NCBI RefSeq assembly: GCF_030013905.1
Contig: NZ_CP124862.1
Coordinates: 1,241,051 to 1,305,050, forward strand
Direction: 5' to 3'
Length of the DNA: 64,000 nucleotides
Source: Petroclostridium sp. X23
GTDB lineage: Bacteria; Bacillota; Clostridia; SK-Y3
Part shown: positions 15,751 to 57,993 of the stretch, one piece after another
Layout of the letters: each line of letters begins with the position of its first letter
Numbering within the stretch: the first letter of the stretch is position 1
The notes under the pieces: generated by a model
Databases searched by the model: none
Told to the model about the DNA's origin: nothing
Seen by the model: only the letters and a program-made list of their open reading frames with translations
Made by a program: the position numbers and the translations under genes

Positions 15751-15885
15751 TACGAGGCTACTGAAAAAGTGCTTAATTGTTCAGAAATCACACAAGGGGA
15801 CAGGGCCGCAGTCCGGCCAAAAAACAGGCCTGACAGCAGACCAGTCCCCTAGTCTGATTTCTTCTGTTCAAAAAATTGCGACTTT
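15751..15885 (+). repeat. Degenerate copy A of a MITE-like intergenic repeat family
   Basis: tacgaggctactGAAAAAGTGCTTAATTG..., then an internal GGGGAC...GTCCCC stem-loop. Homologous to copies at 17264-17414, 23413-23556 (inverted) and 57934-57993. Confidence 0.5.
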
Positions 15886-15940
15886 ATCAGTGGCCTCGGA
15901 CGGTACTCCCATTCCATCTTTTGTCTACATCATTATTCTA

Positions 15941-17068
15941 TCATTTTGTGGGTTTTTCCTGTTTGGTCCTGTATTCAGCAATCAACAAGTCAACAACTCT
16001 TCCGTAACTCATCTCACCGTCTTTTTGATTGTTAGCTTTTAAATACAAATCATTGGCTTTACTGAAATTTTGTTCAACAGGCCCCTCATATAATGCATTA
16101 TATTCAGAAATTGCCCTAAGATCTCTTTTGATGCCTTCACCATAGTCCACCCTTAAAGTATTGTAAGCTTCTCTATCGTTTTCATACAAAGCATTCATTG
16201 AATGAATAAGTGCCAGAAACACACCCGAATACCGAAAATCATCATCCGGGTGCATACTGCATGTAAAATACGCTATATAATTTGCTTCATCTTCTCTTGC
16301 AAATCCACGCTGATGTGCCATTTCATGACATACCGTAGTCGGAAGCAATGATGCCGGTGTGGTGGTGTTGACATTCGCCTCTGATGTATAAAAGCTATAT
16401 ACTCCCGCTATTCCGGTATAAGCCATAAGCTGTGACAGGAATATTCCCTTCGGAACACCATACTGTCCACCCAGTTCTGCATGTACTTGACTTGCGCGGT
16501 CATATCCCTTATGGGCCCTGTTTAAAACATCTCTAAGTCCTTTTGGAGAACCCATTACACCCTTTGTATCCTCATGTACCCTGCTGCGCAGGTCATTCGC
16601 CCGTGTGATGAGGTCTTCACATAATGCTGCCAATTCCTTAACGGATGCAGGTCTAACGTCCAATTCAAATATCTGAGACACCATCATACGGTTATAGTTT
16701 AATCCCCACATGATAATAAATGAAAAATAAATTACACCGGCTAACGCCAGGCCATTTATGATCCCTTTTTTAAATATCTCCCACCGATTTTCTGTCCCTT
16801 TTACAAATCTTACGCATAAAACAACCAATCTCCATATAATAAAAAGAACGAATGCTATTAGCATCAACTCCGCTACCGAAAACGGAAAAACTCCGGTTAC
16901 TGTGCTGATAGTTTGGGAAAACCATTTATAACTTATATTAGAATATATTCGCTCAGTAATAGTGCTATTTAAAGATGAAGTATAATTTAATAACATTCCT
17001 ATGGGTAAAAGCAAAATCAATAAGCACTTCATCAGCAAGCTGGTTTTTTTCATTCTCCCACTCCTCAT
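15941..17068 (-). CDS. DUF3810-family membrane protein with an HExxH motif (putative zinc metallopeptidase)
   Basis: N-terminal TM helices and the HEMAHQRGF motif. Confidence 0.6.
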   Translation of the reverse strand: MRSGRMKKTSLLMKCLLILLLPIGMLLNYTSSLNSTITERIYSNISYKWFSQTISTVTGVFPFSVAELMLIAFVLFIIWRLVVLCVRFVKGTENRWEIFKKGIINGLALAGVIYFSFIIMWGLNYNRMMVSQIFELDVRPASVKELAALCEDLITRANDLRSRVHEDTKGVMGSPKGLRDVLNRAHKGYDRASQVHAELGGQYGVPKGIFLSQLMAYTGIAGVYSFYTSEANVNTTTPASLLPTTVCHEMAHQRGFAREDEANYIAYFTCSMHPDDDFRYSGVFLALIHSMNALYENDREAYNTLRVDYGEGIKRDLRAISEYNALYEGPVEQNFSKANDLYLKANNQKDGEMSYGRVVDLLIAEYRTKQEKPTK

Positions 17069-17263
17069 ATGATTCTATTATATTTAGAACAGTTTCGTCA
17101 ATCTTTTTCCATTCATTGATTACATTAAAATCATTCTCCCTATAGGGTGGTTTTTGCTTTACAGTCTTTATGGTAACCTTTCTTCACAAAAAAGGACTAT
17201 GCTCCTACCTTAATTCCTTTACTGTCTGAGCATAATCCTTCAGCATACCATATTACATAAGGC

Positions 17264-17414
17264 TATAGGAGGTTGTGAAAAAGTGCTTGATTGATCAGTC
17301 GCAAAGCATGGGGACGGACCTGCAGCTTCCCTAAAGAGCAAGCGCAGCAGTAGGTCCGTCCCCATGCTTCACTCCTTCTGCGTGCTAAATTTGATTTTTT
17401 CACAACCTCCTATA
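17264..17414 (+). repeat. Copy B (most complete) of the MITE-like repeat. 19-bp terminal inverted repeats flank a 22-bp GC-rich stem-loop.
   Basis: Left end TATAGGAGGTTGTGAAAAAGtgcttgattg. Right end aaatttgaTTTTTTCACAACCTCCTATA. Internal ggggacggacc...ggtccgtcccc. Confidence 0.65.
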
Positions 17415-18945
17415 TTTCTTTATTAATTTCTATATCATTATTGTCTACATTAACATCTTCTGTCATTCTGCTTTCCACATTATTATTGTCCGAATTGATC
17501 TCTTCTATGATTTTACTTTTTGCAATTGCCCTGGTATTGCTATTTGGGGTTTCATTTGTATTCTTTTTGTTGGACAGCAAATCTACTAGATTAACTCCGG
17601 TCAGCGCCTCCATTGTTTCAGGCAGCTGTGAAATAATATCAGTAATATACCCTGTGACTTTTGAAGCACCTTTTCCCTTCCCTTGACCATTTCCATTATC
17701 AACAATAACAATCTTTTCAGTTTTAGATAGTGGTTCGGATATGGCTCTCGAAATTTCAGGAAGCTTTTCTACAATCATTTGTGCCATCGCCGCTTCACCA
17801 TATTGCTTGAATGCTTCTGCTTTTAATTTCATAGCCTCCGCCTCTGCCTTACCTTTTTCTCTGATGATATCTACTTCAGCCATTCCTTCCGCCTTTTTAG
17901 CTTCGGCTTTTGCTCTACCTTCCAGTTTAATTGCTTCCGCTCTCGCTTCAGCATCCTGAATTTCTTTATACTTGATAGCTTCCGCCTGCTTTTCAGTCAT
18001 ATATTTATCTGCATCAGCCTGCTTTTTAATAGTCGCTTCAAGTTCTTTTTCTTTTCTAACCGCTTCTCTTTCAGCAATATCGATTTCCCTGTTTCTTCTT
18101 AAAAGTTCAACCTCCAGCTCGGTTTCGGTTACTTCTTTTGTAACCTTGTTTTCTTCGATCTTATATGCCAAATCAGCTTGTGCTTTAGCTGTTTGCTGTT
18201 CTTTTTGATACCCTTGGACTTTTAATTCCTTTTCTTTTGTAGCTTCGGCTATTTGCGTCTCCGCGCGCAGTTTTGCCTCTGCGCCCAATCTGTCGGCTTC
18301 TGCCGTTTTTATCGTTGTCTCCTTCCTTGCTTCAGCTTCAGCGATTAGAGCATCTCTCTTTACTTCTGCAATTCTTTTCTTCCCAAGGGCTTCCAAATAT
18401 CCGTTTATATCGCTTATGTCCCTGATAGTAAGCGCTTTTATTTCCAGACCCATTTCCGCAAGATCAACAGCTGCAACTTCCTGAACTGCTGATGCAAATT
18501 TTTCTCTATCCTTATAAATATCTTCCACCGTCATTTTGGAAACGATTTCTCTCAGTTTACCTTCCAAAACATCTTTTGACGTATCTTTGATAACCTCAAT
18601 GGTCCCTTGTTCATGTCCCGTATTAAATTGTTCTACAGCCGCAAGGATACTTTCAGTATCCGACTTGACCTTAATAACTGCTACACCATCAGCAATAATG
18701 GCAACCCCTTGCTCCGTCAGCGCACCATCAATACGTACTTCGATTTTCATATTTTCTAAGGAAATAATGTCCGTTTTTTCCAACAACGGTATCACAAATC
18801 CGCCACCGCCGGAAATAACTCTCTTTTTAAGGCCGGTAACAACTAAAGCCTTATCTTGTGAGACTTTTCTCCACATAGACAGAATCCCTAATAACAAAAG
18901 AACGATTACACCGATGATGCTGATAGGAATAATAAATAATTCCAC
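17410..18945 (-). CDS. floT: Flotillin-family SPFH protein
   Basis: N-terminal TM helix, SPFH domain, long Ala/Glu/Lys-rich coiled coil (EA repeats). 511 aa. Partnered with the upstream NfeD gene, as in the B. subtilis yuaF-floT pair. Confidence 0.75.
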   Translation of the reverse strand: MELFIIPISIIGVIVLLLLGILSMWRKVSQDKALVVTGLKKRVISGGGGFVIPLLEKTDIISLENMKIEVRIDGALTEQGVAIIADGVAVIKVKSDTESILAAVEQFNTGHEQGTIEVIKDTSKDVLEGKLREIVSKMTVEDIYKDREKFASAVQEVAAVDLAEMGLEIKALTIRDISDINGYLEALGKKRIAEVKRDALIAEAEARKETTIKTAEADRLGAEAKLRAETQIAEATKEKELKVQGYQKEQQTAKAQADLAYKIEENKVTKEVTETELEVELLRRNREIDIAEREAVRKEKELEATIKKQADADKYMTEKQAEAIKYKEIQDAEARAEAIKLEGRAKAEAKKAEGMAEVDIIREKGKAEAEAMKLKAEAFKQYGEAAMAQMIVEKLPEISRAISEPLSKTEKIVIVDNGNGQGKGKGASKVTGYITDIISQLPETMEALTGVNLVDLLSNKKNTNETPNSNTRAIAKSKIIEEINSDNNNVESRMTEDVNVDNNDIEINKEI

Positions 18946-19505
18946 TATACCCTCTCCTTTACTTTAATGTCATTTAACTGCGCTACATAAAAGGTATTCT
19001 TCTCTATTTTATGAATGATCACTTCCTTTCCTGCCCCTATATACCTATTATCAATATCTCTACAGGGAGCAGTATACTTGTTGCCATTAAACATATATGA
19101 AATAGTACCAAAGCCTTTCTCCATAATAGGAGATATGACTTTCGCCGGTGTACCGATCAGATACCGGTGTGAAGCTATCTTTTGATTATCCTGTATTTTA
19201 TATAAAGGTACGAGAACCAACCTGAAAAGTATGAACGCAATGATGAAACCCGAAAAAACCGCAGCAATAAATATGACATATGAACTCCATCCCCGGTAAC
19301 TTCCAAGCCATCCCACGCCGCCAAATACGGTAATAAAAGACATAATTACAATAGGCTTTAGTGGCGAAATATTTAACCATGGCACATCTACGCCCGGGTC
19401 AATGTCACCGCCCAAATCAAAAGAATCCAGAAAACTGCCCAGTATGGAAGATAATAGAGTATACGATACTCCTATTATAAAAAGAATTTGATAAGCCCGG
19501 AGCAT
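18945..19505 (-). CDS. NfeD-family membrane protein (YuaF-like flotillin partner)
   Basis: Three TM helices plus a C-terminal OB-fold-like soluble domain. Overlaps the flotillin start by 1 nt. Confidence 0.65.
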   Translation of the reverse strand: MLRAYQILFIIGVSYTLLSSILGSFLDSFDLGGDIDPGVDVPWLNISPLKPIVIMSFITVFGGVGWLGSYRGWSSYVIFIAAVFSGFIIAFILFRLVLVPLYKIQDNQKIASHRYLIGTPAKVISPIMEKGFGTISYMFNGNKYTAPCRDIDNRYIGAGKEVIIHKIEKNTFYVAQLNDIKVKERV

Positions 19506-19680
19506 TTGACCCCTCCTTCGTATTCCGGTTTTTGACCGTCATTGCCATTAATAGAGACTAATTTAGTACTGCATTATTAAGACTGAAAAAACAAAAAAAG
19601 GTTCCATCTTTGTGATAAAAAATTTGAGAAAAATATCCGGATGTTTCGCGCTTATTCTTATTCCGGCAGATAAGTAGGTA

Positions 19681-19711
19681 TAAAAAACGAATGGGAGTGA
19701 TATCCCATTCG
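19681..19711 (-). terminator. Intrinsic terminator after the paaK-like gene
   Basis: Minus strand: aacgaatggga-tatcac-tcccattcgtt followed by TTTTTAT. Confidence 0.6.
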
Positions 19712-19712
19712 T

Positions 19713-20951
19713 TCATCCTACATCACGATAATCTAAAATTCTTTTTGTTTTCTTTTCACTTCTGGGCAGCCCACCAACTTCTAACGCTTCCACATGGATA
19801 CTGAGTCCGATTAGCTTTTTAAAGTGTTCTGCAACCATTGTCTCAATATCAATCTTGTTACACAAATGACTCATTTCAACTCTTAGTGTCATCACATCTT
19901 TTCCGTCAATATGTGAGACAACAACCTGGTATTCGCTGCTGACGCCTTCGATGCTTCTCAACAATCCATCAATTTGTCCCGGATAAATATTTACACCTTT
20001 TACCTTCACCATGTCATCGGTTCTGCCTATAATCCTATCCAACCGCGGATACGGCCTGCCGCATGCGCATTGGCCCGGAATAAGTCTCGTCAAATCTCTG
20101 GTTCTGTAACGCAGCAGGGGTGCTCCTTCTTTGGTGAGGGTAGTGATTACCAGTTCTCCATATTCCCCTTCGGGAAGTACGTTACCGGTAGCCGGGTCAA
20201 TGATTTCAAAATATAAATGATCATCCCAATAATGCATTCCCGAATGTTCATCACAGTCAATTGCAATCCCCGGCCCATAAATCTCGGTCAAACCATAGAT
20301 ATCATAGGTTTGTATTCCCAACTCATCTTCAATCCTTTTACGCATTTTTTCTCCCCAGCGTTCCGAACCGAATATGCCTTTTTTTAGACGAATATGCTGT
20401 TTGATTTCCCGTTTGCACACTTCTTCAGCGATGAGCAATCCGTAAGAGGAAGTGCCTATCAATACCGTGCTTTTTAAATCTACCATCATCTGAAGCTGCT
20501 TTTCGGTATTGCCGGGCCCCATAGGTACCGCCATTGCGCCAAGTTTTTCTACACCGGCCTGAAATCCTATACCTGCCGTCCACAGACCGTATCCGGGCGT
20601 AATCTGCACTCGGTCTGTTTTGGTGACCCCTGCGGTTTCCATACATCGCCCCATAAGCTCAGCCCATACATCTACATCCGACTTTGTATATGGGATAATA
20701 ACAGGCTTGCCTGTCGTTCCTGAAGATGAGTGTATTCTTACCACATCCTCATCAGGTACCGCTTGCAGACCTAACGGATATGCATCTCTAAGTTCTTCTT
20801 TGGTCGTAAAGGGTAAATACTGGATATCCTCCATGGACTGAACTTTATTGATATCGATGCCGTACTCTTCAAATTTTCTGCGGTAAAACGGACTGTTTTC
20901 CGATAATCTTTTTAATAATGTTTTGAACTGATTAAACTGTTCTCGTCTCAT
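19713..20951 (-). CDS. paaK: Phenylacetate-CoA ligase family (aryl-acetate:CoA ligase, PaaK-like)
   Basis: AMP-binding core (SSGTTGKP; YGLTE). 412 aa. Immediately downstream of iorAB. Confidence 0.75.
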   Translation of the reverse strand: MRREQFNQFKTLLKRLSENSPFYRRKFEEYGIDINKVQSMEDIQYLPFTTKEELRDAYPLGLQAVPDEDVVRIHSSSGTTGKPVIIPYTKSDVDVWAELMGRCMETAGVTKTDRVQITPGYGLWTAGIGFQAGVEKLGAMAVPMGPGNTEKQLQMMVDLKSTVLIGTSSYGLLIAEEVCKREIKQHIRLKKGIFGSERWGEKMRKRIEDELGIQTYDIYGLTEIYGPGIAIDCDEHSGMHYWDDHLYFEIIDPATGNVLPEGEYGELVITTLTKEGAPLLRYRTRDLTRLIPGQCACGRPYPRLDRIIGRTDDMVKVKGVNIYPGQIDGLLRSIEGVSSEYQVVVSHIDGKDVMTLRVEMSHLCNKIDIETMVAEHFKKLIGLSIHVEALEVGGLPRSEKKTKRILDYRDVG

Positions 20952-20965
20952 CTATATCACCTTTC

Positions 20966-21565
20966 CTATCTTGTCTGTATAGCATTCAAGCCTAATCTGA
21001 AAGCTTTTATATTCAAGTCAATATATTTTTCTTTTACATGCTGCCCAATGATCTCTTCCATCAAATCCTGAGTGACAGGCAACATCTCCAATCCAAATGC
21101 CGCTCCCAGCATCACTACATTTACCGCTTTTGACGTTCCTGCTTCAATCGCCAATGAATGTGCATCTACATAATGCACGTTTGGAATATGCTCGCTTATA
21201 AATTTTTCAATATCTTTATAATGATACGCCGCCAGTCCTAGAGAAACCGGAACGGAATTAATCCAATACTTATTGACAATACATTTTCCTGTTGGTGAAA
21301 GGCGGTTAAAGTTCCTTACCACTTCGCCCATTTCAAATCCCAGCAATAAATCGGCATTTTTCAAAGGAATGACCGAACCTGCATCCTGACTGCTGATCCT
21401 GACATGACTGGTAACACATCCGCCTCTCTGTGCCATGCCGATGGTTTCAGCCGTTCTTACAAAATATCCTGCTTCTATAGCCGCAGCCCCTAACAACCGT
21501 GATGCCAAAACAGTCCCCTGTCCTCCGACACCTCCAATAATCACATCAAACTCCATTGTTTCCAC
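20966..21565 (-). CDS. iorB: Indolepyruvate/aromatic 2-oxoacid:ferredoxin oxidoreductase subunit beta
   Basis: About 200-aa POR gamma-like domain (GGVGGQG). Overlaps iorA. Confidence 0.7.
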   Translation of the reverse strand: METMEFDVIIGGVGGQGTVLASRLLGAAAIEAGYFVRTAETIGMAQRGGCVTSHVRISSQDAGSVIPLKNADLLLGFEMGEVVRNFNRLSPTGKCIVNKYWINSVPVSLGLAAYHYKDIEKFISEHIPNVHYVDAHSLAIEAGTSKAVNVVMLGAAFGLEMLPVTQDLMEEIIGQHVKEKYIDLNIKAFRLGLNAIQTR

Positions 21566-23348: not shown

Positions 23349-23412
23349 CTTTTATCCCCTTTACATCTATTTATTGGTTCACGGTTTACAGTTCACAGAA
23401 TATTTCCACGCT

Positions 23413-23556
23413 CAAATCACATTGGTATCCATAGAAGAATACAACAAAGTCGAATTTAGCACGCAGAGGAAATCGAACTTGGGGACTGTCCCTGCTGTTT
23501 GCCCGGTTCTGGCATAACAGAGGGACTGTCCACATGTTTGATTTTCGAACGACTAA
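23413..23556 (-). repeat. Copy C of the MITE-like repeat, inverted relative to copies A, B and D
   Basis: Reverse complement reads gtgGAAAAGTGCTTAGTCG ... gggactgtccc ... gggactgtcc ... AAATTCGACTTTGTTGTATTCTTCTATGG. Aligns to copy B termini and stem-loop. Confidence 0.5.
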
Positions 23557-23560
23557 GCAC

Positions 23561-23645
23561 TTTTCCACATCTTGTTTAGTGTAGTGGCAGGCCTTGTGTC
23601 TGCCCGAATACCCCTAAGCATTTTTATGGGGGTAGACACAAGGCC
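23561..23645. repeat. About 85-nt imperfect hairpin (13-bp perfect core stem) in the iorA upstream region
   Basis: aggccttgtgtct ... agacacaaggcct with a nested acccc/ggggt stem. Flanked by gtagtggc / gcctacccctaccac. Confidence 0.4.
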
Positions 23646-23759
23646 TACCCCTACCACCAATCATCTGATTTATTATGTTAAAAGAAAGATATATATTACC
23701 CTAAGCATGTGCAACTTATTATTTTATGCTCTAAAATATATTTTATACCAAAATAACAC

Positions 23760-26880: not shown

Positions 26881-26909
26881 ATTCTCTAAAATATTTCAGC
26901 TAATGCAGA

Positions 26910-29804: not shown

Positions 29805-30181
29805 TTACAGAAAAATTCCGTATAAGTCCTAGTACAAGTACAATGGTAGTCTATACGCCTCCAATCAGAAAAATCCAACCTAAGCGTCCAACACTTTCAC
29901 TAAATAATTTATAGCCGTATATAGTGAGAAATGCTATTATTTCATTCTTTATAAAAGCAAGTTGTTACAACACAGCCTAACCTGCATTACCTCCAGAAAG
30001 ACCGTTTCACCCGTAACTTTATCTATTCCCTTTTAATATATTATTATATAGATGTTTTTGCCAGTAAAAAAGTTCCGTAATCATTAATAGATATACTCTT
30101 ATACTCTCCTCACTATCCACTCCCCACTAAAGCAAAATATTTCAAACAAAACGTTTAATGTATTTGATATAGTTTATTCTC

Positions 30182-36223: not shown

Positions 36224-36512
36224 CTTAAGTCATCAGAAATAATTAGTAATAGAAAAGTAGACAAAGATCGTCTACTTTTTTAATTGCAGCAAGTATAAAT
36301 GTCAAAGAAAAGGTGTCTTGTATCCGGTTCTAGTAAGCTTTTTTAGTTAATTGCAATAATCTTATCTTCTTAATTCGAAAATCAAGTTGCTGAAATACTA
36401 TTAAATAGTGACAGATACTCCCTCTCTACCCCTGATGCCCTCTATATGCGTCATTAGATTTCTACAATACCCTCCAGTTCTTTATTCTTCAAAAGATTGC
36501 TCGGACTCTTCT

Positions 36513-36899
36513 TCATAAAAATCCAAAAATGAATACTTCTTTCCGCCTTTTTTCCCATCCTAAAACTGAATTCAAGTTCACATTTTGAGCTGATTGGAAT
36601 ATACACTTATCCACAACATCAAAGTTCTTTTTCAGCGCTTTTATCAATTGCTTTACCTCTCGGCGCTTGCTGGATGTCTTTTGTGCTGCCACAACACATC
36701 CGCAATTCATTGCCATACTGCCGTTACTACTGGTAAAACGCTTAATATCGTCCTCTTTGACATAATACATGGGACGTATCAATTCAATCCCTTTAAAGTT
36801 TTTTGATTTTAATTTATGCCATACTTTACCTTTCTGTCTTGGATCAAATATTATCATAAAATGTTTAAAAAAGCTTCCTTTATATTTTTTATTGACCAT
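36513..36899 (-). pseudogene. Truncated duplicate of the 3' ~360 bp of the ttcA-like gene (47581..48468); a gene fragment
   Basis: 36470-36830 aligns to 47566-47925 at about 93% identity. The translation shares KSKNFKG(I/V)ELIRPMYYVKEDDIKRFTSSNG(S/I)MAMNCGCVVAAQKTSSKRREVKQLIKALKKNF, then diverges at a 1-nt indel near the 3' end. No PP-loop N-terminal part is present. Confidence 0.6.
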
Positions 36900-37067
36900 T
36901 GATATCCCCTTCTAATTTATATCTTTAGTCAATATCTTACTATAAAAGGATTTGCTCTTTTACAGGTAAATTTATTCATTGCAAATAAATGGGATAGGAC
37001 AGGGACAGAGTGACAGGTTGAAACCACTGAAAAATCCATTTTAGAACGCAGAAGGTCAAGACCCTTA

Positions 37068-37940
37068 TTATTTCCAATCCAGCATATATCTTTGAAAAAC
37101 TAATGCATCACACGCATCCTTGTCTAATTTTTCTTCATCTGCACCGTTACTGATATCACGCCATACCCTTATATCTTGTCCTACTTGACCACCCATTCTC
37201 ACAAATGGCTCCATAACAACCGTCCCATCATATTCTATCTCTCTTAGCGCATCACCAATTTCTCGCCACGGTATGCGTCCTTTTCCCGGAACCATTCTGT
37301 TACATTCACCCGTATGAAAGTGTCCTAAATATTTTCCTGCTGTTCTAATAGCGTCTCCAATACTTTGCTCTTCAATGTTCATATGAAATGTATCAAGCAT
37401 TACCTTTACATTATCAGCCTCTGTTTCTTCAACAAATTCAACTGTTTCTGCTGCCGTATTTAAAACATGGTTTTCGAAACGATTTAAGGATTCGAGACCT
37501 AATGTTATACCACATTCCTTTGCAATTCTTCCCATCTCTCTTACACCCTCTACTCCACGTTGCCAATCTCCTGATTTATCAATTGGTTTGGAGTAATCAA
37601 CCGGCCAATAAGAATACAATGCACCTCCAATTAAAGTTGAATTGAGCTTTTCCATCATTTTAAAAATATTTGTAAAAAAAGCTAGTCCATTTTTTCTTAT
37701 ATCAGGATCTGATGATGCAATATTTTGCTCTGCTGTTGGTCCGTGCCCAACAGTCAGTCTAATATTATGATGTTCTGCACATGTCCTTAATTCTTTTATG
37801 TCTTTTTCAGAATAATAGGCTATTGGAGTGGCAGCTATCTCTAAAATATCGAAACCTAACTTTGAGACTTTTTCAATATAATATTTATAGTCTCCACTCC
37901 ATTCCTTCTCCCAATATGCGTAATATATTCCATGTTGCAT
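37068..37940 (-). CDS. Ketose 3-epimerase family TIM-barrel enzyme (D-psicose/D-tagatose 3-epimerase-like)
   Basis: Xylose-isomerase-like TIM barrel with the conserved E...D...H...E metal ligands (GLESLNRFE; DTFHMNIEE; GHFHTGE). Confidence 0.6.
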   Translation of the reverse strand: MQHGIYYAYWEKEWSGDYKYYIEKVSKLGFDILEIAATPIAYYSEKDIKELRTCAEHHNIRLTVGHGPTAEQNIASSDPDIRKNGLAFFTNIFKMMEKLNSTLIGGALYSYWPVDYSKPIDKSGDWQRGVEGVREMGRIAKECGITLGLESLNRFENHVLNTAAETVEFVEETEADNVKVMLDTFHMNIEEQSIGDAIRTAGKYLGHFHTGECNRMVPGKGRIPWREIGDALREIEYDGTVVMEPFVRMGGQVGQDIRVWRDISNGADEEKLDKDACDALVFQRYMLDWK

Positions 37941-47374: not shown

Positions 47375-47580
47375 TATTCTCCTCCACTATTTTATATCAA
47401 AATTTTATCATAATATCGATATCAAATTAAACGATTTATAATATGTTAAAAAAATTTATTTTTCTTTATAAGTGTACTACAGCTTAAGGTAAAATCATCT
47501 ATTGTATTATCCATGCTATCCTAATTTATTCTGATATATCGTTGGATAGCTCCTAGAGCAATACAATATCCTCTAGTTCT

Positions 47581-48468
47581 TTATTCTTCAAATGATTGCT
47601 CGGACTCTTCTTCATAAAAATCCAAAAACGAATACTTCTTTCCGCCTTTTTCCCATCCTAAAACGGAATTCAAGTTTACATTTTGGGCTGATTGGAATAT
47701 ACACTTATCCACATCATTAAAGTTTTTTTTCAGCGCTTTTATCAATTGCTTTACCTCCCGGCGCTTGCTGGATGTCTTTTGTGCTGCCACAACACACCCG
47801 CAATTCATTGCCATAATGCCGTTACTACTGGTAAAACGTTTTATATCATCTTCTTTGACATAATACATGGGACGTATCAATTCAACCCCTTTAAAATTTT
47901 TTGATTTTAATTTCGGCCGCATGGTTTTAAAACTACCGGCATACAACATATTTAGCATGGTGGTTTCTATCACATCATCAAAATGATGCCCCAAAGCCAG
48001 CTTATTGCATTCTAACTCCTGCGCTTTGGCATAAAGATGGCCTCGCCGCATTCTTGCACACAGATAACACGGATAATCGCTTGCAATATCATCAATCACC
48101 TCAAAAATATCCGTCTCGAAAATCTGCACCGGAATATCCAGATGCTTGCAGTTATTCATTAACATCGTCCTATTGCTGTCATAGTATCCGGGGTCCATCG
48201 CGATGAATTCCAGTTCAAATTGGATCTTTCCATGGCGCTTTAATTCCTGAAATAATTTTGCCATCAGTAAGCTGTCTTTCCCACCGGAAAGGGCCACCGC
48301 AATTTTATCACCGTCCTGAACCAGTTTAAAATCGTTAATTGCTTTATTAAACCTCGTCCATATATGCTTTTTATATGTTTTCGTGATGCTCCGTTCAATT
48401 TCTTTAAGCGTTTTCCTTTCACCTAAAGGAATGACTACTTCACAACCGCTTCCTGCTATACCACTCAT
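47581..48468 (-). CDS. ttcA: TtcA-like tRNA 2-thiocytidine synthetase / PP-loop ATP pyrophosphatase
   Basis: PP-loop SGGKDS. CxxC motifs (CYLC; MAMNCGC). 295 aa. Confidence 0.65.
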   Translation of the reverse strand: MSGIAGSGCEVVIPLGERKTLKEIERSITKTYKKHIWTRFNKAINDFKLVQDGDKIAVALSGGKDSLLMAKLFQELKRHGKIQFELEFIAMDPGYYDSNRTMLMNNCKHLDIPVQIFETDIFEVIDDIASDYPCYLCARMRRGHLYAKAQELECNKLALGHHFDDVIETTMLNMLYAGSFKTMRPKLKSKNFKGVELIRPMYYVKEDDIKRFTSSNGIMAMNCGCVVAAQKTSSKRREVKQLIKALKKNFNDVDKCIFQSAQNVNLNSVLGWEKGGKKYSFLDFYEEESEQSFEE

Positions 48469-49359: not shown

Positions 49360-49385
49360 TCTTCTCCCCCCTTGCGATTTTATCG

Positions 49386-50213: not shown

Positions 50214-50238
50214 AGTCTTAACCTCCTATAGATGATAA

Positions 50239-51249
50239 TTAAAAAACTTTAGACCATGCTTTCCTTAAAACACGTTTTGCCCCAGCTATGATCACTTCAG
50301 AGTCCTCATAAGGTCTGGGTTTTATTTCAAAACTTAGAATAGGGCGATTCTCCTTGTTCAGATACCCTATTTCCAATAGCACTTTTAAGAACTCCGTTAC
50401 TTCCTTTACATTATTTTCACTATTCGGGAACCCAAATCTTGGATGCTCATCTCCATAAGCTTCCATAGACGGATCCTTTATAACCGTATTACCGATATGA
50501 ACATGCTTCACATGCTTAGCAATTGGTAAAATCGCTTGTCTCGGAGTTTCCCCTAACATCGGAAGATGGCTTAAATCTACCATAATCCCGAAATTATCGT
50601 ATTCTTTAGATACTTCGGCTACATATCTTTCCACTAAAGCCACAGGGCCAAGTAAACTTTTCTTATCAATATTATAATCAAATACCTCCAGCAGTACCGG
50701 CATGCCGCCTTTCTGCTGCGCATAGCTGCAAAGCTCTTTTGTAGATTGGATAAGCGCTTGCAGCGCTTCTTCTTTGCAGTCTTCATCATACCTTCCGCTT
50801 AAAAACGCAAAACTTTCCGCGTTCATATCGTAGGCTTCATCGATACCTTCTTCCAAAGCTGCGAGCGCATTCTTTCTGCCTTCTTCATTTAAATCATTAA
50901 TATTCAGTCCATTAGAAAGTAACCTGGAGTGCCCTGCATAGGATACATCCAATTTACTTACCTCTATTACTTTCTTAATTTCATCCCTAATACTATTATC
51001 TTTGATATGCCCAATCTCAACTACATCAAAGTAATCATCTGCAGCAACCTTCTTGAATGATTCCAGAAGGCTTTGACCATCTTTAAACGAAGAAGGAAAT
51101 GCCATACTTTGAATAATTCCTATTCTCATATAATCCTTGATATTTTCCATGCACTTCCTCCTTGATTCACACAACATTATTGAACTGTTTCTTGTTTCTT
51201 TTTGATAGCCTTCATAATGACCGGAGCAAAACAGAAACCTATAACACAA
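50239..51249 (-). CDS. Xylose-isomerase-like TIM-barrel protein, second copy
   Basis: LLEVFDYN, MVDLSHL, HVHIGN pattern. The likely true start is MENIKDYMRIGII at about 51153, behind GGAGGAAG. Confidence 0.5.
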   Translation of the reverse strand: MCYRFLFCSGHYEGYQKETRNSSIMLCESRRKCMENIKDYMRIGIIQSMAFPSSFKDGQSLLESFKKVAADDYFDVVEIGHIKDNSIRDEIKKVIEVSKLDVSYAGHSRLLSNGLNINDLNEEGRKNALAALEEGIDEAYDMNAESFAFLSGRYDEDCKEEALQALIQSTKELCSYAQQKGGMPVLLEVFDYNIDKKSLLGPVALVERYVAEVSKEYDNFGIMVDLSHLPMLGETPRQAILPIAKHVKHVHIGNTVIKDPSMEAYGDEHPRFGFPNSENNVKEVTEFLKVLLEIGYLNKENRPILSFEIKPRPYEDSEVIIAGAKRVLRKAWSKVF

Positions 51250-52682
51250 ACCATCAATATAATGGATATTGTACTTCCAACAAAAATACTCAAGCTTCCT
51301 GCAGACATATCAAACGACTGTCTCACATACATTTCAAGCATTGGTGTAAGCACAAATGCCAGCAACAGCGGTGCTTCAGGGATTTTAGCGATTTTCATGA
51401 AATATGCAATAACACCGGCGCCTACCATAAAACCTACATCAAACATGCTGTTATTAACAGAATATGTTCCCACAATACATACAGCCGAGATGATGGGTAT
51501 CATAATTGAATTCGGAACACTTACTACTCTCATAAGGATGGGAATACATGCAATGGCAATAATCAAGCATATGATATTTCCGATATACATCGACCCCATC
51601 AGTCCCCATACAAAATCAGGCCTGTCTTTAAAAAGCATCGGTCCCGGATTGAGTCCCCACATCATCAGACCTCCAAGAAGTACCGCACCGGTCCCAGAAC
51701 CTGGAATTCCCAGTGAAAGAAGCGGTGCAAACGCACCCATAGCGGCCCCATTATTCGCTGCTTCTGCAGCTGTTACACCTTCTATCGCACCATTTCCCAT
51801 CTCATCTTTATTTTTCCCCATTCTTTTTTCCATGATATACGAAAGGAATGCGGCCATGGTAGCGCCCGCTCCGGGCAGTACCCCTACAAAGCAACCGAGA
51901 ATCCCGGACCTTGCTGCAACCGGTGCTACTTTTTTAAATTCACTCTTATCTAATATACTTTCTTTAATGGTTAGTCTTTTTATTTCTTCATTTTTATAGT
52001 TTCCTCTATTGACCACCATATCGATAACCTGTCCAAATCCAAACATACCAATGACCAATGGAATAAAAGAAATACCGCTGAAAAGATAAACACTGTTAAA
52101 ACTGAATCTTGGAATTCCCAGCGCTTTATCAACGCCGACCGTTGCAAGCAAAATCCCTATTGCAGTCGCTAAAAGTCCTCCGCTCGGATCATCTCCCAGC
52201 AGCCATCCTATAGACGTGAGCGCTAGAATAATCAGCCACGTAAGCTCAGGTGATCCAAAAGACAAACCGGCTTTGGCGAGTCCCGGCCCTAAAAATGTAA
52301 GAATAATGATACCAATCGTACCTCCGATAAAAGAAGAGACACTGGCAGTAAAAAGTGCCTTTCCCGCTTTCCCCTGACGGCTCATGGGATATCCGTCCAA
52401 TGAAGTCATAACGGCCGGCGAATCCCCGGGAATGTTTAATAAAATAGCACTGAAAGAACCACCATACATATTTGAATAGTATAAAGCTGCCAGCATTATA
52501 ATTGCGGTGGTTGGATCCATTTTAAAGGTAAGGGGAAGCAGCAGGGCTACTCCTGCCAATGAACCAATCCCTGGCATCGCCCCAACAATAAGCCCCAGAA
52601 AAGCTCCAACAATAGCAGCTAAAAGATTCTGGAAGCCCAATGCTGTAATCAATCCATCCATTAAAAATTCGAGATTACCCAT
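51177..52682 (-). CDS. tctA: Tripartite tricarboxylate transporter large permease TctA
   Basis: 501 aa, polytopic, with the duplicated GxxxG-rich TctA pattern (GAMPGIGSLAGVALLLP). Confidence 0.75.
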   Translation of the reverse strand: MGNLEFLMDGLITALGFQNLLAAIVGAFLGLIVGAMPGIGSLAGVALLLPLTFKMDPTTAIIMLAALYYSNMYGGSFSAILLNIPGDSPAVMTSLDGYPMSRQGKAGKALFTASVSSFIGGTIGIIILTFLGPGLAKAGLSFGSPELTWLIILALTSIGWLLGDDPSGGLLATAIGILLATVGVDKALGIPRFSFNSVYLFSGISFIPLVIGMFGFGQVIDMVVNRGNYKNEEIKRLTIKESILDKSEFKKVAPVAARSGILGCFVGVLPGAGATMAAFLSYIMEKRMGKNKDEMGNGAIEGVTAAEAANNGAAMGAFAPLLSLGIPGSGTGAVLLGGLMMWGLNPGPMLFKDRPDFVWGLMGSMYIGNIICLIIAIACIPILMRVVSVPNSIMIPIISAVCIVGTYSVNNSMFDVGFMVGAGVIAYFMKIAKIPEAPLLLAFVLTPMLEMYVRQSFDMSAGSLSIFVGSTISIILMVCVIGFCFAPVIMKAIKKKQETVQ

Positions 52683-52736
52683 ATTCTTTTTAGCCTACTT
52701 TCTATAAAAATTTATATTCAATCATATTTTAAATCT

Positions 52737-53165
52737 CTATAACAATTCAAATATTCCTGAAGGAAGAGGAACTTTCAACCATGCGACAAAAATACCGTAT
52801 AATATCGCCGCACATGTAACTCCTGTCACTACCGACTTAGCTACATTGTACTTTTCCATGAATTTGAGCCATAAAAAAATGTAAATTGCAATAGAAATAA
52901 TCAGTCCAAATACATAAGAACCCAATATCAATCCGATCAGTGCTGCTACCGGAATAAAAGCTTTCCAGGAAAACCCGCTGGGTGATTTGTCTTTTGAATT
53001 CGCTATAAAAGCCATAATCCCGAAAATAATTGCCAATCCCCCACCCAGCACGGGCATAAAACCTCCTCCAGGACCTCTTCTAACCCATAATTCATAAACA
53101 AACAAACCTGAGTAAACACAATATATTCCTATAATTACTGAAAGCGCAGGGAAAAACTTTTTCAA
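52737..53165 (-). CDS. tctB: Tripartite tricarboxylate transporter small subunit TctB
   Basis: 142 aa with 4 TM helices, between tctC and tctA. Confidence 0.6.
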   Translation of the reverse strand: MKKFFPALSVIIGIYCVYSGLFVYELWVRRGPGGGFMPVLGGGLAIIFGIMAFIANSKDKSPSGFSWKAFIPVAALIGLILGSYVFGLIISIAIYIFLWLKFMEKYNVAKSVVTGVTCAAILYGIFVAWLKVPLPSGIFELL

Positions 53166-53317
53166 CTCAGACCCTCCTTCCTATAAAGTATTCATATCAA
53201 TATACAATTATATCATCAAATGAGAAGCGCTGCTATTATCTTTAGTAATTGCGGCACTTCTCATTCGATTCTTAAATACCTTTACTATTTTGAGATGCTA
53301 AAAATGTTCATCAATGT

Positions 53318-54358
53318 TTATTTTGAAAGGTCAACTTCCGAGAACATCTCTTCATATAGCTTGCTTTGTGCAGTAAAGAATTTCTTTGTTTCTTCAGCTG
53401 TTAAATATTTGTTGGTCATAAAGCCTTTTTCAATATAATTTTGCTTCCATTCATCGGTTTCTGTGACTTTCTTCAATAAATCTTCATAAAACTTAAGCGC
53501 TTCTGCAGACATATTCGGCGGGCCGGCAATTGCTCTTACTTCGCTTAGCTCAAGTTTATCATATCCAAGTTCTTTAAAGGTAGGCGTATCTTTGAATACA
53601 CCGCTAAGTCTTTCGCTGGAAAATGATGCAACCGGAATAAGCTCTCCTGCTTGAATCTGTGAATTACTCTCTGCAGGATTGAAGATTCCTACATCAATAT
53701 GTCCACCTAATAAAGAAGACATTACTTCTCCAGAACTGTTAAACTGTACATAAGCAGCTTTTGATCCGGTTTCTTTGTTAAACATTAAAAATGAAAGATG
53801 ATCACCGTTACCACGCTGAGAACCACCAATCTTTACGGTATCCGGGTTTTCTTTTGCTGCTTTGATAATGCTTTCAATATCTTTGTATTTGCTATCTTTC
53901 TTAACTGCAAAAACCAACTCATCAACAGCCACTGTACCGACATAAGTCAACATATCTGCCTTAACCGGAGATTTGTTAACAATTGCACTCATAACCTGTC
54001 CTGAGTGAAGTATCATTAATGTATTCGGATCACCCTTTTTACCATAGACATATGAGAATGATACCGCACCTGAACCGCCAGGCTTGTTAACAACCATAAA
54101 GCTCTTCGGTGTAAAATTATTCTTTTGTGCTAAATCCGCTATTGTTCTTGCATTCAAATCACTACCGCCACCAGCACTGGATGGTACCACAAATTCTATC
54201 TCTTTCTCTGGCACCCACGCTTTTGCAGGTTCTTCTGTCTTTGCGGGTTGTTCTGTTTTTGCAGGCTCTTCGGTCTTAACATCCGGTTTTTGAGCGCACC
54301 CTGCAAACAAACTTAAGGTTAACATCCCCACTGCTACTAAGCTTACAATCTTTCTCAT
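53318..54358 (-). CDS. tctC: TctC/Bug-family substrate-binding lipoprotein with a PAKTEEPAKTEQPAKTEEPAK linker
   Basis: Lipobox LSLFAGCAQ. Tandem 18-nt coding repeats at about 54230-54290. Confidence 0.7.
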   Translation of the reverse strand: MRKIVSLVAVGMLTLSLFAGCAQKPDVKTEEPAKTEQPAKTEEPAKAWVPEKEIEFVVPSSAGGGSDLNARTIADLAQKNNFTPKSFMVVNKPGGSGAVSFSYVYGKKGDPNTLMILHSGQVMSAIVNKSPVKADMLTYVGTVAVDELVFAVKKDSKYKDIESIIKAAKENPDTVKIGGSQRGNGDHLSFLMFNKETGSKAAYVQFNSSGEVMSSLLGGHIDVGIFNPAESNSQIQAGELIPVASFSSERLSGVFKDTPTFKELGYDKLELSEVRAIAGPPNMSAEALKFYEDLLKKVTETDEWKQNYIEKGFMTNKYLTAEETKKFFTAQSKLYEEMFSEVDLSK

Positions 54359-54481
54359 CTTACGTCCTCCTCAATAAATTTATTTTTAAATATTATGTTA
54401 AATTGCTTGTTTAAATCATTTCTAAACAAGTACAAAATTTAACATAATGATTTAACAATAGTATTCATAAATATTCAGCCG

Positions 54482-55513
54482 TTATTTAGCTTCCATTGCC
54501 ACTCTATCATATTCAGCTATCTTAGCCGCCATTTTTACTGCATTTTCCAATGCACCTGTCTTAGCAATACCTTTTCCTGCAATATCATAGGCTGTCCCAT
54601 GGGCCGCAGTCACAATAGGTGCCGGCAATCCTGCCGCAACGGTAATTCCGAATTCAAAACCTTTCAGCTTCATTGCAATCTGACCTTGGTCATGATACAT
54701 GGTAACTGCCGCATCAAACTCACCGTTAAAGGCTTTGATAAACAGAATATCTGCCGGATAAGGACCTATCACATTAATCCCTTCCTGTTGCGCTTGCTTC
54801 ATCGCCGGTCCGATCACATCGATTTCTTCTGTTCCGCATAGGCCGTTTTCTCCACCATGCGGATTGAGAGCTGCTATTCCTAATCGTGCATTTTCAATAC
54901 CCGCACGCTTTAATGTTTTATCTGCTAATCTTATTGCCCTCATAATATTCTCAGCAGTCAATTTATCACTTACTTCTTTTATAGGAATATGGCTGGTTAC
55001 ACGGGATGTCCATAAGTTATCAAGCACATTGACTTCTCCAAAAGGTTCTGTCCAGTTAAAATGATGCGCAAAAAGTGTATGCTCACTTTCAAAATCATGT
55101 CCTCCCAACTTAAGCGCTGCTTTATTTAATGGAGCAAAGCAGAAACCATGGATTTTCCCTTGTTTGTAAAGATCGATGGCAGTGATTAACATATCCCCTG
55201 CTACCTTACCGCAGATAGGATTCACCTCGCCGATTTTTATTTCTTCCGGGTTTAAGTTCTTTTGATCCAACACTTGAATCCCTTGACTCCAGTCTGCATC
55301 CTCGACACTGTCAATAACCCTACAAGGGAACTCTACCCCCGATACTTTCATCCCCATTTGAAGCACTCTCAAATCCCCTATAATTACAGGATTACAGTAG
55401 TTTTGCAATGTCCCGTTCGCGGCAATTTTTGCTACAATTTCAGGCCCTACGCCCGCCGCATCACCAAGGAGTATAGCAAGGATAGGTTTATTGCCCACAT
55501 TTGTATTATTCAT
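54482..55513 (-). CDS. PdxA-family NAD-dependent 4-phospho-hydroxyacid dehydrogenase (PdxA2-like)
   Basis: ILLGDAAGVGPEIV ... GIAALNPHGGENG ... VTMYHDQG motifs. Confidence 0.7.
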   Translation of the reverse strand: MNNTNVGNKPILAILLGDAAGVGPEIVAKIAANGTLQNYCNPVIIGDLRVLQMGMKVSGVEFPCRVIDSVEDADWSQGIQVLDQKNLNPEEIKIGEVNPICGKVAGDMLITAIDLYKQGKIHGFCFAPLNKAALKLGGHDFESEHTLFAHHFNWTEPFGEVNVLDNLWTSRVTSHIPIKEVSDKLTAENIMRAIRLADKTLKRAGIENARLGIAALNPHGGENGLCGTEEIDVIGPAMKQAQQEGINVIGPYPADILFIKAFNGEFDAAVTMYHDQGQIAMKLKGFEFGITVAAGLPAPIVTAAHGTAYDIAGKGIAKTGALENAVKMAAKIAEYDRVAMEAK

Positions 55514-55576
55514 TATTCAATTTTCTCCTTCCCTTATCTAATGACTAGACCGTTTTCTCTTACACACTATTATATA

Positions 55577-55592
55577 AGCAATAACTATGCCA
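55577..55592 (-). promoter_or_regulatory. Sigma-54 (-24/-12) promoter for the pdxA-tctCBA-isomerase operon
   Basis: Minus strand: TTGGCAT-agtta-TTGCT. GG and GC are 10 nt apart. About 65 nt upstream of the pdxA-like start. Confidence 0.6.
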
Positions 55593-55750
55593 ATTTTATT
55601 AAACGATCACAAAACAATCGATTTTTATTGTCTTTTATCACTAAACACATAAGAATTCTTGCATTAATAAGGTAGTTACTTTTATTTTTTTAATAATATT
55701 TTATAGACTTTTAGGGAAGAATAAATAGAATATATTAATAACCATTACTA

Positions 55751-55814
55751 TGAAACAAAAAAATGAAACAAATTTTAAACATTATCCGTTTCATTTTTGT
55801 TTCATTTTTGTTTT
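55751..55814. promoter_or_regulatory. AT-rich inverted repeat built from TGAAACAAA units; candidate enhancer (UAS) for the sigma-54 activator, or activator-gene terminator
   Basis: TGAAACAAAAAAATGAAACAAA ... 16 nt ... TTTCATTTTTGTTTCATTTTTGTTTT. Lies 160-230 bp upstream of the sigma-54 promoter. Confidence 0.4.
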
Positions 55815-55958
55815 ACTTTTTACTATTTACTTTTTTCCAAAAGGATCACTTATAGTGTAATGCCCCATTTTTTGCTTCTATTTTCTCTCACATCTATAAT
55901 CTCCCTAAATATTGCAAACCAATTCTGCACAATATCAATTTTAAAATAACAAGGATTT

Positions 55959-57875
55959 CTAAGATTTTTCTTTTAATCTTCTCCACAAAGTAGTCCTGCT
56001 AATGCCTAATGCTTTTGCTATATCTTCTTTACTTCTTTTTTTCACTTTTTTTAATCTTAGCAGTTCTTTCACCTCATCATCAATAAGTTGATCCGAATCT
56101 TCCAATATATTATCTGTAATAGCCTGTTTTATTTGTACTTGTGCATCGTCAACATCCAATAACTCCGCTACATCTTCCCGCGCAATACAGTTCGTATCTG
56201 TTAGGACCATAAGTCTCTCACAAATATTTCTAAGCTCTCGAATATTCCCCGGCCAGCTATATGCTTTTAATACATCTGTCGCTTCTTTCGTCATCACAGG
56301 TAATATTTTATGTGTTTCCTTGCAATATTTTTCGATATAGTATCTCGCAATATCAATAATATCTTCTTCCCTATCCCGCAGAGGAGGTATTTTGAAGTTC
56401 AATACATCCAACCTGTATAATAAATCCTGTCTAAAATCTCCATTCTTAACTTTTTCTTTTAAACTAATATTACTTGCGGATATAACACGCACATCAATAG
56501 GTATTACTTTATCATCACCGATCCTTCTTATCTCTCTCTCTTGCAATACTCTAAGCAGTTTGGCTTGAAGATTAAGAGGCAGTTCACTAATCTCATCTAA
56601 AAAAATAGTCCCCCTATGCGCAAGTTCAAACAAACCTACCTTTCCGCCTTTGGCAGCACCGGAAAAGGCACCTTCCGCATATCCGAAAAGCTCACTTTCA
56701 AGCAGATTTTCCGGTACCGCAGCACAGTTAATCGCAACAAAAGGTTGCAACGTCCTTTTACTTGCATTATGAATACTCTGCGCGAACAATTCTTTTCCTG
56801 TACCGGTTTCTCCCACCAATAAAATATTAGAGTCTACCTGGCTGTATTTATACGCAATTTGTTTTGCTTTATTGAGCGCATTACTATTTCCGATAATATT
56901 TCCAAAGGTATATTTTGCTACCAGTCCTTTATTATTTAATTCTTTTCTTATTTTGCTTTCAATATCCTGTATCTTATCAACATTTTGAAAAGTGCATACA
57001 AATCCTACATTTTGAGATTCTACTTTTATAGGAACCCAGTTACATACTACCATCGTCCCGTTAATGGGCCTTATAATACCTACTTCTTCCTGCTTCGTCT
57101 TCATGACATCCAACAAATCCGAATCGCGGATAATCTCTTTAATCGCTTGTCCTTTGACCTTTCTATTTAAAGGAATGTTCAATGTCCTATATGCTGCTCT
57201 ATTAAAATTGTTTATAATCCCATCTTGGTCGAAAGCAACAATCGCTTCCTTCGCGTTATCGAGTACAATATTTACAAGTTCAGCCTTTCCTCTTTCCAAC
57301 CGGGTAGCGTAAGCAGCATTTAAAGCTTCTTTAATAGACCTTCTTATTGCTTCTTCTCCTGTTTTAATCCGTATGCAATTCCATCCCATTTCCTCAGCCA
57401 TATTACACGTGGTCAAACCTCCCACAATCGCATCAGCACGGAGTGTTTGCGCAGTTTTCAAAGCACCTTCAATGTCTTCTTCATCTTTTATCTTAAAAAC
57501 TTCTATATCAATCCCCATAATCTCTTTCAGACTGTCTACTTCATATATGATGGATTCGGAAGCAATAATCGCGACCTTTTTGGTGTTATACTTCTTTTTA
57601 CACTCATTGACTGCAGTAATAATGTCATAACCCGTCACAGCTATTTCAATAACAGAAACATTTTTTAAATTTTTCTTAAAAGCCAGATAAGTAATACCCC
57701 TAGCCACAACAATATCCGAACTGCATTGTTTTAAAAAGGTTTCTTGCGTTCCCAAGATATGCGCGGTCTCAAAAATAATTTTTTCATCTTCCACTTCTTT
57801 TAAATAGCTTTTAACCTTTGCTTCAATCTCTTTATATGGGATTATGAACGTTACTTTAATCATAATTGTACTCAT
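55959..57875 (-). CDS. Sigma-54-dependent transcriptional activator: PrpR-type N-terminal sensory domain, PAS, AAA+ sigma-54 interaction domain, C-terminal HTH
   Basis: Walker A GETGTGKE. GAFTGA-equivalent GYAEGAFSGA. Arginine-finger region. C-terminal Fis-type HTH (IAKALGISRTTLWRRLK). Confidence 0.8.
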   Translation of the reverse strand: MSTIMIKVTFIIPYKEIEAKVKSYLKEVEDEKIIFETAHILGTQETFLKQCSSDIVVARGITYLAFKKNLKNVSVIEIAVTGYDIITAVNECKKKYNTKKVAIIASESIIYEVDSLKEIMGIDIEVFKIKDEEDIEGALKTAQTLRADAIVGGLTTCNMAEEMGWNCIRIKTGEEAIRRSIKEALNAAYATRLERGKAELVNIVLDNAKEAIVAFDQDGIINNFNRAAYRTLNIPLNRKVKGQAIKEIIRDSDLLDVMKTKQEEVGIIRPINGTMVVCNWVPIKVESQNVGFVCTFQNVDKIQDIESKIRKELNNKGLVAKYTFGNIIGNSNALNKAKQIAYKYSQVDSNILLVGETGTGKELFAQSIHNASKRTLQPFVAINCAAVPENLLESELFGYAEGAFSGAAKGGKVGLFELAHRGTIFLDEISELPLNLQAKLLRVLQEREIRRIGDDKVIPIDVRVISASNISLKEKVKNGDFRQDLLYRLDVLNFKIPPLRDREEDIIDIARYYIEKYCKETHKILPVMTKEATDVLKAYSWPGNIRELRNICERLMVLTDTNCIAREDVAELLDVDDAQVQIKQAITDNILEDSDQLIDDEVKELLRLKKVKKRSKEDIAKALGISRTTLWRRLKEKS

Positions 57876-57933
57876 CCTTCTATATATGATACAACTAGCG
57901 GGAGTTTTATAGACATCTTATGTCATATCATCT

Positions 57934-57993
57934 TATAGGATGCGAAAAAGTGCTTGATCGTTCGGAAATTGGACTTTTTCACAACCTCCTATA
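57934..57993 (+). repeat. Copy D (short form) of the MITE-like repeat: termini only, no internal stem-loop
   Basis: TATAGGATGCGAAAAAGTGCTTGATCGttcggAAATTGGACTTTTTCACAACCTCCTATA. Confidence 0.55.

Follow-up and report, generated by a model that had tools for sequence, protein, structure and literature searches.

Results

Copies of the Repeat in the Window

This work deals with a family of short repeats bounded by terminal inverted repeats (TIRs) in a stretch of DNA from Petroclostridium sp. X23 (Oscillospiraceae, class Clostridia), called here the window, by which we mean the whole 64-kb stretch that was analysed. A previous reading made from the letters alone (the sequence-only reading) had described there a four-copy intergenic family resembling MITEs, the miniature transposable elements that carry inverted repeats. 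Four related copies (c1 to c4) are indeed found, with positions that were right give or take 10–20 nt, and the count is extended by a fifth, fragmentary copy at 37016–37062 on the minus strand. The window has a G+C content of 37.7% and a coding fraction of about 87%, and all five pieces, with a G+C content of 40–50% that is above the window average, lie within the non-coding 13.4%, of which they take up about 6%. The five pieces are the following:

15754–15897, plus strand: c1, subfamily B, 144 bp, with a core hairpin GGGGAC...GTCCCC
17264–17414, plus strand: c2, the complete reference copy, with TATA at 17264–17267, a 143-bp element at 17268–17410 and TATA at 17411–17414
23434–23574, minus strand: c3, inverted, 141 bp, with decayed TIRs and a core hairpin GTGGAC...GTCCCC
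37016–37062, minus strand: fragment of 47 nt, right-end remnant only (CCTTCTGCGTTCTAAAATGGATTTTTCAGTGGTTTC), with a c1-type TIR (CAGTGG)
57934–57993, plus strand: c4, short form, with TATA, a 52-bp element at 57938–57989 and TATA

The relationship between the copies was measured by blastn, using each copy singly as query against the window. Identities of 71% over 125 nt (c1–c3, E = 8e-15), 67% over 144 nt (c2–c3, E = 4e-10) and 63% over 139 nt (c1–c2, E = 6e-8) were found, and c4 matched c2 at its ends only (28 nt at 93% and 22 nt at 100%). The 20-mer TATAGGAGGTTGTGAAAAAG occurs three times in the window at one mismatch or less, with 0 occurrences expected. A profile search with c1–c3 revealed no additional full-length copy in the 64 kb.

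The best preserved copy is c2, in which a 15-bp TIR with 15/15 matches (GGAGGTTGTGAAAAA) occupies positions 17268–17282 and 17396–17410, on both sides of a core hairpin at 17304–17369. It lies 196 nt upstream of the start of a DUF3810 open reading frame (ORF) at 15941–17068 (minus strand), which sits between c1 and c2. The claim that all copies are intergenic holds, though the right end of c2 and its TATA overlap the TAG stop codon (17410–17412, minus strand) of a flotillin-like ORF at 17410–18945 (minus strand). At the other side of the DUF3810 ORF, which ends at 15941, c1 lies between this gene and a convergent amine-oxidase-like ORF ending at 15728, as had been noted for some of the copies. 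The location proposed for c1 was right except that its right end lies 12 nt farther, and the copy is not simply degenerate, since it has a symmetric TIR of its own (GAGGCTACTGAAAAAG / CTTTATCAGTGGCCTC, 16 bp with two mismatches in this variant), flanked by GTAC and GGAC with no TATA.

The third copy is inverted, as proposed, in a span shifted by around 20 nt, now corrected to 23434–23574. Its TIRs (AAGATGTGGAAAAG / CTTTGTTGTATTCTTC) are followed by TAAA and TATG at the positions equivalent to TATA, and its core reads GTGGAC...GTCCCC, unlike the core hairpin GGGGAC...GTCCCC attributed to the whole family. It lies about 85 nt upstream of an iorA-like start (23348). The short form c4, located 59 nt upstream of the start of a sigma-54 activator gene (57875), is a form in which around 90 bp of the interior are missing, with an AAAT microhomology at the deletion. 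It is a 60-bp form that keeps both termini, as stated before, and these are not both intact: the TIR at the right is perfect, and a 3-nt deletion and one substitution are found in the one at the left. The fragment is found directly 3' of the stop codon of the ORF at 37068–37940 (minus strand); the similarity that supports it (nhmmer E = 0.39; blastn 88% over 26 nt, E = 0.003) is weak alone, and it was taken as a fifth copy because of its intergenic position and the TIR variant that it has in common with c1.

This variant, CGAGGCYACTGAWAAAGT, is present on both arms of c1, and an identical CAGTGG-type end is found in the fragment. At least two subfamilies with co-varied TIRs are thus present in the window, A (c2, c4 and c3, the latter decayed) and B (c1 and the fragment). 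Next to the TIRs the sequence is non-palindromic, with GTGCTTRATYG at the left and CTGCGTGCTAAATTYGA at the right in direct orientation. Element sizes range from 52 to 144 bp across the copies, and no ORF is common to them; the short ORFs opened by the GGAGG-N6-GTG of the TIR differ from copy to copy, and small-peptide genes were rejected for this reason.

Two features adjoin c3. A hairpin at 23581–23654, between the cbiQ-like stop codon and c3, has 30-nt arms with 83% complementarity (GGCAGGCCTTGTGTCTGCCC...GGGTAGACACAAGGCCTACC). It lacks a T-tract and is single-copy in the window; c3 may have inserted beside it, or the hairpin may be another type of repeat. On the other side, between c3 and the iorA-like start (23349–23433, minus strand), a GTGAAC motif is repeated (TGTGAACTGTAAACCGTGAACC), which may be an operator.

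A Sister Family with Filled and Empty Sites

The 19-mer formed by TATA and the TIR was searched for exact matches in 185,579 species-representative genomes. Of the 11 loci obtained, 9 open a 108-bp element with TATA+GGAGGTTGTGAAAAA at its left end. The right end of these elements has the consensus TTTTTCACATCCTCC+TATA, with one mismatch, and it was not part of the search key. Such sister copies were found in Clostridium guangxiense (six loci), C. neuense (one), Desnuesiella massiliensis (three copies in two loci) and one metagenome contig, with flanks that are all different and an interior unrelated to that of the Petroclostridium type. The hosts of the sister family belong to Clostridiaceae, versus Oscillospiraceae for the window type, and the lengths are 108 versus 151 bp. 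By contrast, the foldback architecture is the same, and both types tend to be located on a stop codon or behind it. Six sister copies are in sense orientation, three are antisense and two lie between divergent genes.

The other matches of the genome and metagenome scans were chance ones, in coding sequence or in ribosome-binding sites (L004, L009, L012, L014–L019), and no Petroclostridium locus was among the matches of either 19-mer scan. In two metagenome contigs (L014:1305–1323 and L016:1336–1354) the 19-mer is the ribosome-binding site and start region of a small gene; as it serves there as a translation start, the TIR mimics a GGAGG-N6-GTG start that faces into the element.

The mobility of the sister family is observed in one of its loci. 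In C. guangxiense (L002) a copy immediately follows the gene of an M50 site-2 protease and lies upstream of trmB, and in Clostridium sp. DMHC 10 (L025), whose protease is 100% identical, the element is at the same place, so that the filled site reads GCACTAA-TATA-[100 bp]-TATA-GATTATG in both. The corresponding site in two further assemblies (L023 and L024, protease 95% identical) is empty and reads GCATTAA-TATA-GATAGAC, and the locus with a protease 86% identical (L026) also has no element. The protease homologues all end at the same residue, which supports that the insertion did not truncate the gene. Such a polymorphism of filled and empty sites, the latter with one TATA only, shows that the sister family is mobile.

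Two other duplications were considered. If only TA were duplicated, as in the IS630 and Correia types, the empty site of the sister family should be TAATAGAT, and TAATATAGAT was observed. A 5-bp TATAG repeat agrees with the L002 site, is contradicted by 4 of 12 copies and would leave the TIRs without symmetry. As both alternatives fail, the 19-bp TIR of the sequence-only reading is better read as a 4-bp TATA direct repeat plus a 15-bp TIR (GGAGGTTGTGAAAAA); the shared ends are confirmed and their length is not. The check for target-site duplications in the window itself gave TATA on both sides of c2 and c4.

In three independent insertions (L002:1760–1867, L013:5005–5112 and c2 at 17410–17414 of the window) the TATA overlaps the ATA-TAR end of the upstream gene, in such a way that the stop codon is regenerated. 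It would seem from this that insertion often takes place at the exact end of a gene.

Foldback Structure and Compensatory Changes

On either strand, a single long hairpin is formed by each of the copies, with z-scores between -3.2 and -9.8. The minimum free energy was -64.8 for c1 (z = -8.7) and -78.8 for c2 (z = -9.4), and c3 gave the z-score of -3.2. When c1–c3 were compared, 90.7% of 150 pair cells were paired, versus 34–47% when the partners were slid, although the structure was derived from these same sequences and the count of pairs is inflated by this. Both sides had changed in 16 of the 50 pairs, a figure reached by 0 of 500 shuffles. In addition, G·U pairs exceeded A·C mismatches on the sense strand (25 versus 12), a count that is also biased because the structure was predicted on that strand. 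The 108-bp sister family behaves similarly, with 7 of 37 pairs compensatory between lineages and 95.8% paired.

These changes have to be separated by their location. Symmetric changes in the TIRs, such as the variant present on both arms of c1 and in the fragment, are expected from co-evolution of TIR and transposase. Changes in the internal helix may reflect selection on an RNA or on a single-stranded DNA hairpin, or repeated correction from one arm to the other.

A Probable Non-Autonomous Element and Its Putative Parent

The size of the copies, their TIRs, the 4-bp repeats at c2 and c4, the dispersal of intergenic copies in both orientations, the internal-deletion form, the lack of a conserved ORF and the filled and empty sites of a sister family with identical ends make a non-autonomous transposable element the best reading, and the best fit of the three candidates that the sequence-only reading had put forward. 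The copies are probably a MITE family moved in trans by a transposase encoded elsewhere. They agree with the general definition of MITEs in size (about 50–800 bp), absence of coding capacity, TIRs of at least 10–15 bp and direct repeats, the latter at c2 and c4 (PMC10969869; 10.1101/2024.01.18.576219).

In the proposed mechanism, a transposase encoded elsewhere in the genome would bind both 15-bp TIRs (GGAGGTTGTGAAAAA) and would cut TATA with a 4-bp stagger, leaving a TATA duplication, which is seen in the sister family and with which c2 and c4 are consistent. Copy c2 looks intact and potentially mobilisable, and the other four pieces (c1, c3, c4 and the fragment) give the impression of being old or unable to move. 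If transcribed, a copy would form a long hairpin, and an effect on the neighbouring genes through mRNA processing, termination or promoter creation would be possible by analogy.

The TIR resemblance and the 4-bp duplication would make a DDE-type insertion sequence (IS), possibly of the IS5 family, the most likely parent. The 16-bp inverted repeat of the IS5 family, GGAAGGTGCGAA(T/C)AAG, and GGAGGTTGTGAAAAAG are identical at 12 of 16 positions in a fixed register; by our own arithmetic the chance of this is around 1e-4 for one comparison, and this comparison was chosen post hoc among many IS families. The ends of IS5 itself were read from the IS5A copy of E. coli K-12 (GGAAGGTGCGAATAAG / GGAAGGTGCGAACAAG). 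The repeats described here resemble IS5 and ISKpn26 in ends that start with GG and in a 4-bp duplication made only of A and T, which is TTAA for ISKpn26 (PMC10569121), and differ from them in having no transposase gene. Because the comparison was picked after the fact, IS5 parentage is a tentative assignment that we regard as possible and more doubtful than not.

The searches for a transposase with these termini gave none in 20 ORFs of the window (those around the copies and a sample of the others) or in the 8-kb sister loci, and no DDE_Tnp_1 gene was linked to the repeats. With both element types as queries, plasmid BLAST produced chance-level matches only, and the scans of viral contigs gave 0 matches and one chance match. 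A tblastn search for Clostridial relatives with the E. coli IS5 transposase listed matches that were swamped by enterobacterial copies.

Several observations weigh against a transposase-driven MITE family. Mobility and empty sites were seen in the sister family and not in the window's own copies, of which c1 and c3 have no TATA duplication. Moreover, TATA is invariant at both ends, so that insertion next to a TATA with no duplication is also compatible. Only four to five copies exist in the 64-kb window and they are 63–72% identical, so that any activity may be ancient. To this are added the lack of a transposase among the 20 window ORFs and a target, TATA, that is neither TTAA nor YTAR, the target preference of IS5. 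Finally, 10 of the 31 core-helix pairs show compensatory changes, which a model of pure transposase binding does not require.

Alternative Explanations

The foldback may be more than a passive relic and have a strand-specific function, as RNA or single-stranded DNA, selected by the host or by the transposition mechanism; as another option, the elements would belong to an undescribed TATA-specific IS group. The ends kept across two families of Clostridia around unrelated interiors, the internal pairing kept and the G·U excess leave some room for either version, which we judge unlikely on the whole. If it were true, a TATA-specific IS group might hint at the mobiliser of the Correia elements, which have similar ends and are orphans of a transposase.

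A structured-RNA family, made of small RNA genes or cis-acting mRNA elements, would have the hairpin as its functional unit, spread by duplication or only secondarily transposon-like. It would account for a foldback kept despite 28–37% sequence divergence, for the changes on both sides of pairs in c1–c3 and in the sister family, and for the G·U over A·C excess; the related repeat bcr1 is transcribed and has compensatory changes (PMC3184786). However, the structure on which the paired and G·U counts rest comes from the same sequences, binding by a transposase would produce the symmetric TIR changes just as well, and the filled and empty sites with TATA duplication show transposition. Rfam gave 0 matches at the gathering threshold in the window and in 9 sister loci, and a relaxed search returned noise resembling miRNA precursors, at 20–30 bits against gathering thresholds of 80–100. 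Orientation is also mixed, in the sister family and in the window, where c3 and the fragment are in sense with their neighbours, c2 and c4 are antisense, and c1 lies between convergent genes. Promoter and terminator signals were no higher than chance. A small structured RNA, the third candidate of the sequence-only reading, is therefore distinctly improbable, with the compensatory changes remaining on its side.

Repetitive extragenic palindromic (REP) sequences, which are imperfect palindromes that often occur in clusters and whose head carries a GTAG-type tetranucleotide, and the bacterial interspersed mosaic elements (BIMEs) represent another type of intergenic hairpin. Under this explanation the copies would be palindromes that the host maintains, and their spread would be due to an HUH enzyme, such as a REP-associated tyrosine transposase (RAYT), inserting them beside a fixed TATA that is not duplicated. 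The location of some hairpins right after stop codons or between convergent genes is that of such repeats, and the invariant TATA on both sides and the empty site would likewise be obtained with an element that brings one TATA and always inserts beside another. Size and architecture do not fit: REPs are palindromes of around 35 nt (PMC3184786 Table 1) and the elements here have 100–145 bp, with ends complementary to each other over at least 15 bp and not each forming its own hairpin. Neither a RAYT nor a Y1 transposase was found among the ORFs checked (20 in the window), and a REP/BIME-like origin seems very unlikely. Palindromic elements derived from IS200/IS605, which carry one subterminal hairpin per end and neither TIR nor duplication, were rejected on similar grounds, as pairing takes place here between the two ends and not within each of them, and TATA is found on both sides.

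Chance similarity, or a derivation from terminators or leaders of paralogous genes, could draw on the handful of copies and on the fact that c1 and c2 flank the same gene, but it has a negligible probability given pairwise E values down to 8e-15, flanking genes in unrelated Pfam families (amine oxidase, DUF3810, Band_7/flotillin, IorA-type thiamine pyrophosphate enzyme, CbiQ, sigma-54 activator and amidohydrolase), no T-tract terminator with the elements except for a minor internal match in c1, and the same ends in other genera.

Other functions were considered and rejected. Integron attC sites, or a gene cassette formed by c1, DUF3810 and c2, were discarded, as R'/R'' core sites are missing from the copies and the DUF3810 gene is conserved widely. 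The DUF3810 protein of the window is 100% identical to one of Petroclostridium sp. X23; its next closest relative is 62% identical, in a locus that shows no element and no synteny with the window. The motifs of binding sites for CcpA, CodY, Spo0A or sigma-54 do not fit by eye. For an outward hybrid promoter formed with the TIR, one 9/12 match (TTCACA-18-TAATAT) facing DUF3810 was found, with promoter-like sites in the region at chance level.

Likeness to Known Repeats

The closest parallel in behaviour to this putative MITE family is that of the Correia elements of Neisseria (CREE, nemis), which have a TIR TATAG[CT]GGATTAACAAAAATCAGGAC, size classes of 153–157 and 104–108 bp, filled and empty sites and no known transposase (PMC2649163). 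Like them, the repeats described here are non-coding foldbacks that come in sizes of about 150 and 105 bp and in shorter forms with deletions, are intergenic and often located just 5' of genes, and have filled and empty sites in close relatives (here for the sister family). Their end, TATAGGAGGTTGTGAAAAAG, also starts with TATAG and contains an A-run, and by our own count it is identical to the Correia TIR at 13 of 19 positions in a fixed register. By contrast, the hosts are Pseudomonadota in one case and Bacillota in the other, there is no sequence similarity beyond the termini, and CREE duplicates TA whereas in the sister family TATA is retained at the empty site. An integration host factor (IHF) site, promoters and RNase III cleavage have been shown for CREE. 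Direct membership in the Correia family, defined by the 26-bp repeat TATAG[CT]GGATTAAC(A)5... with up to 3 mismatches, was rejected on account of 6 mismatches in the first 19 positions and the rejection of a TA-only duplication in the sister family.

Among repeats of Bacillota, bcr1 of the Bacillus cereus group is also a non-coding element, of around 155 bp, with short direct repeats, a patchy distribution and compensatory changes (PMC3184786). It differs in its 5-bp repeats and in a cruciform of two stem-loops, whereas here a 4-bp TATA and a single foldback closed by the TIRs are found. No Bacillus sequence matched beyond chance in the plasmid BLAST, and sequence and repeat length speak against membership in the bcr1 family. 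The RUP element of pneumococcus is linked to IS630-Spn1, with a TA duplication, unlike the TATA duplication found here. Similar traits of RUP are its TIRs, its size of around 107 bp, its Gram-positive host and a presumed mobilisation in trans by a resident IS (PMC3184786 Table 1; PMC10969869).

Other Repeats in the Window

Three further features do not touch the family. A second small repeat, built on AGTGGGGAGTG, has six matches at one mismatch or less (0.49 expected), at 995–1060, 4754–4764 and 30106–30140; the one at 995–1060, located downstream of genes, resembles a terminator, being a hairpin whose loop region contains a T-run. A direct duplication of 365 bp (36463–36820 and 47562–47918, 94% identical, 11.1 kb apart) involves a PP-loop ATPase gene (PF01171) at 47581–48468 (minus strand), of which the ORF at 36513–36899 (minus strand) looks like a truncated copy. 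At 55739–55829, in the intergenic DNA downstream of the sigma-54 activator gene, there is an imperfect palindrome of ATGAAAC(A)n units, with 42-nt arms that are 71% complementary, which may be a regulator binding array.

Discussion

The repeats of Petroclostridium sp. X23 are probably a previously undescribed family of the well-known MITE class and, as such, an ordinary bacterial repeat. Their TIR string appears in no paper of the literature library searched, and a recent review of MITEs does not mention Clostridia (PMC10969869). The family adds to this class of bacteria a MITE superfamily defined by shared ends and TATA duplication.

There are also practical consequences. With elements located 60–200 nt from start codons or on stop codons, predictions of promoters, terminators and small RNAs can be confounded, and short-read assemblies can be broken. 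If the parent transposase were identified, a TATA-targeting element would become available, with a possible use in the genetics of anaerobes that are hard to manipulate.

Only two features might merit more work, the conservation of the ends across families and the preserved hairpin, and the family could be used to ask whether the preservation of hairpins in bacterial MITEs reflects selection.

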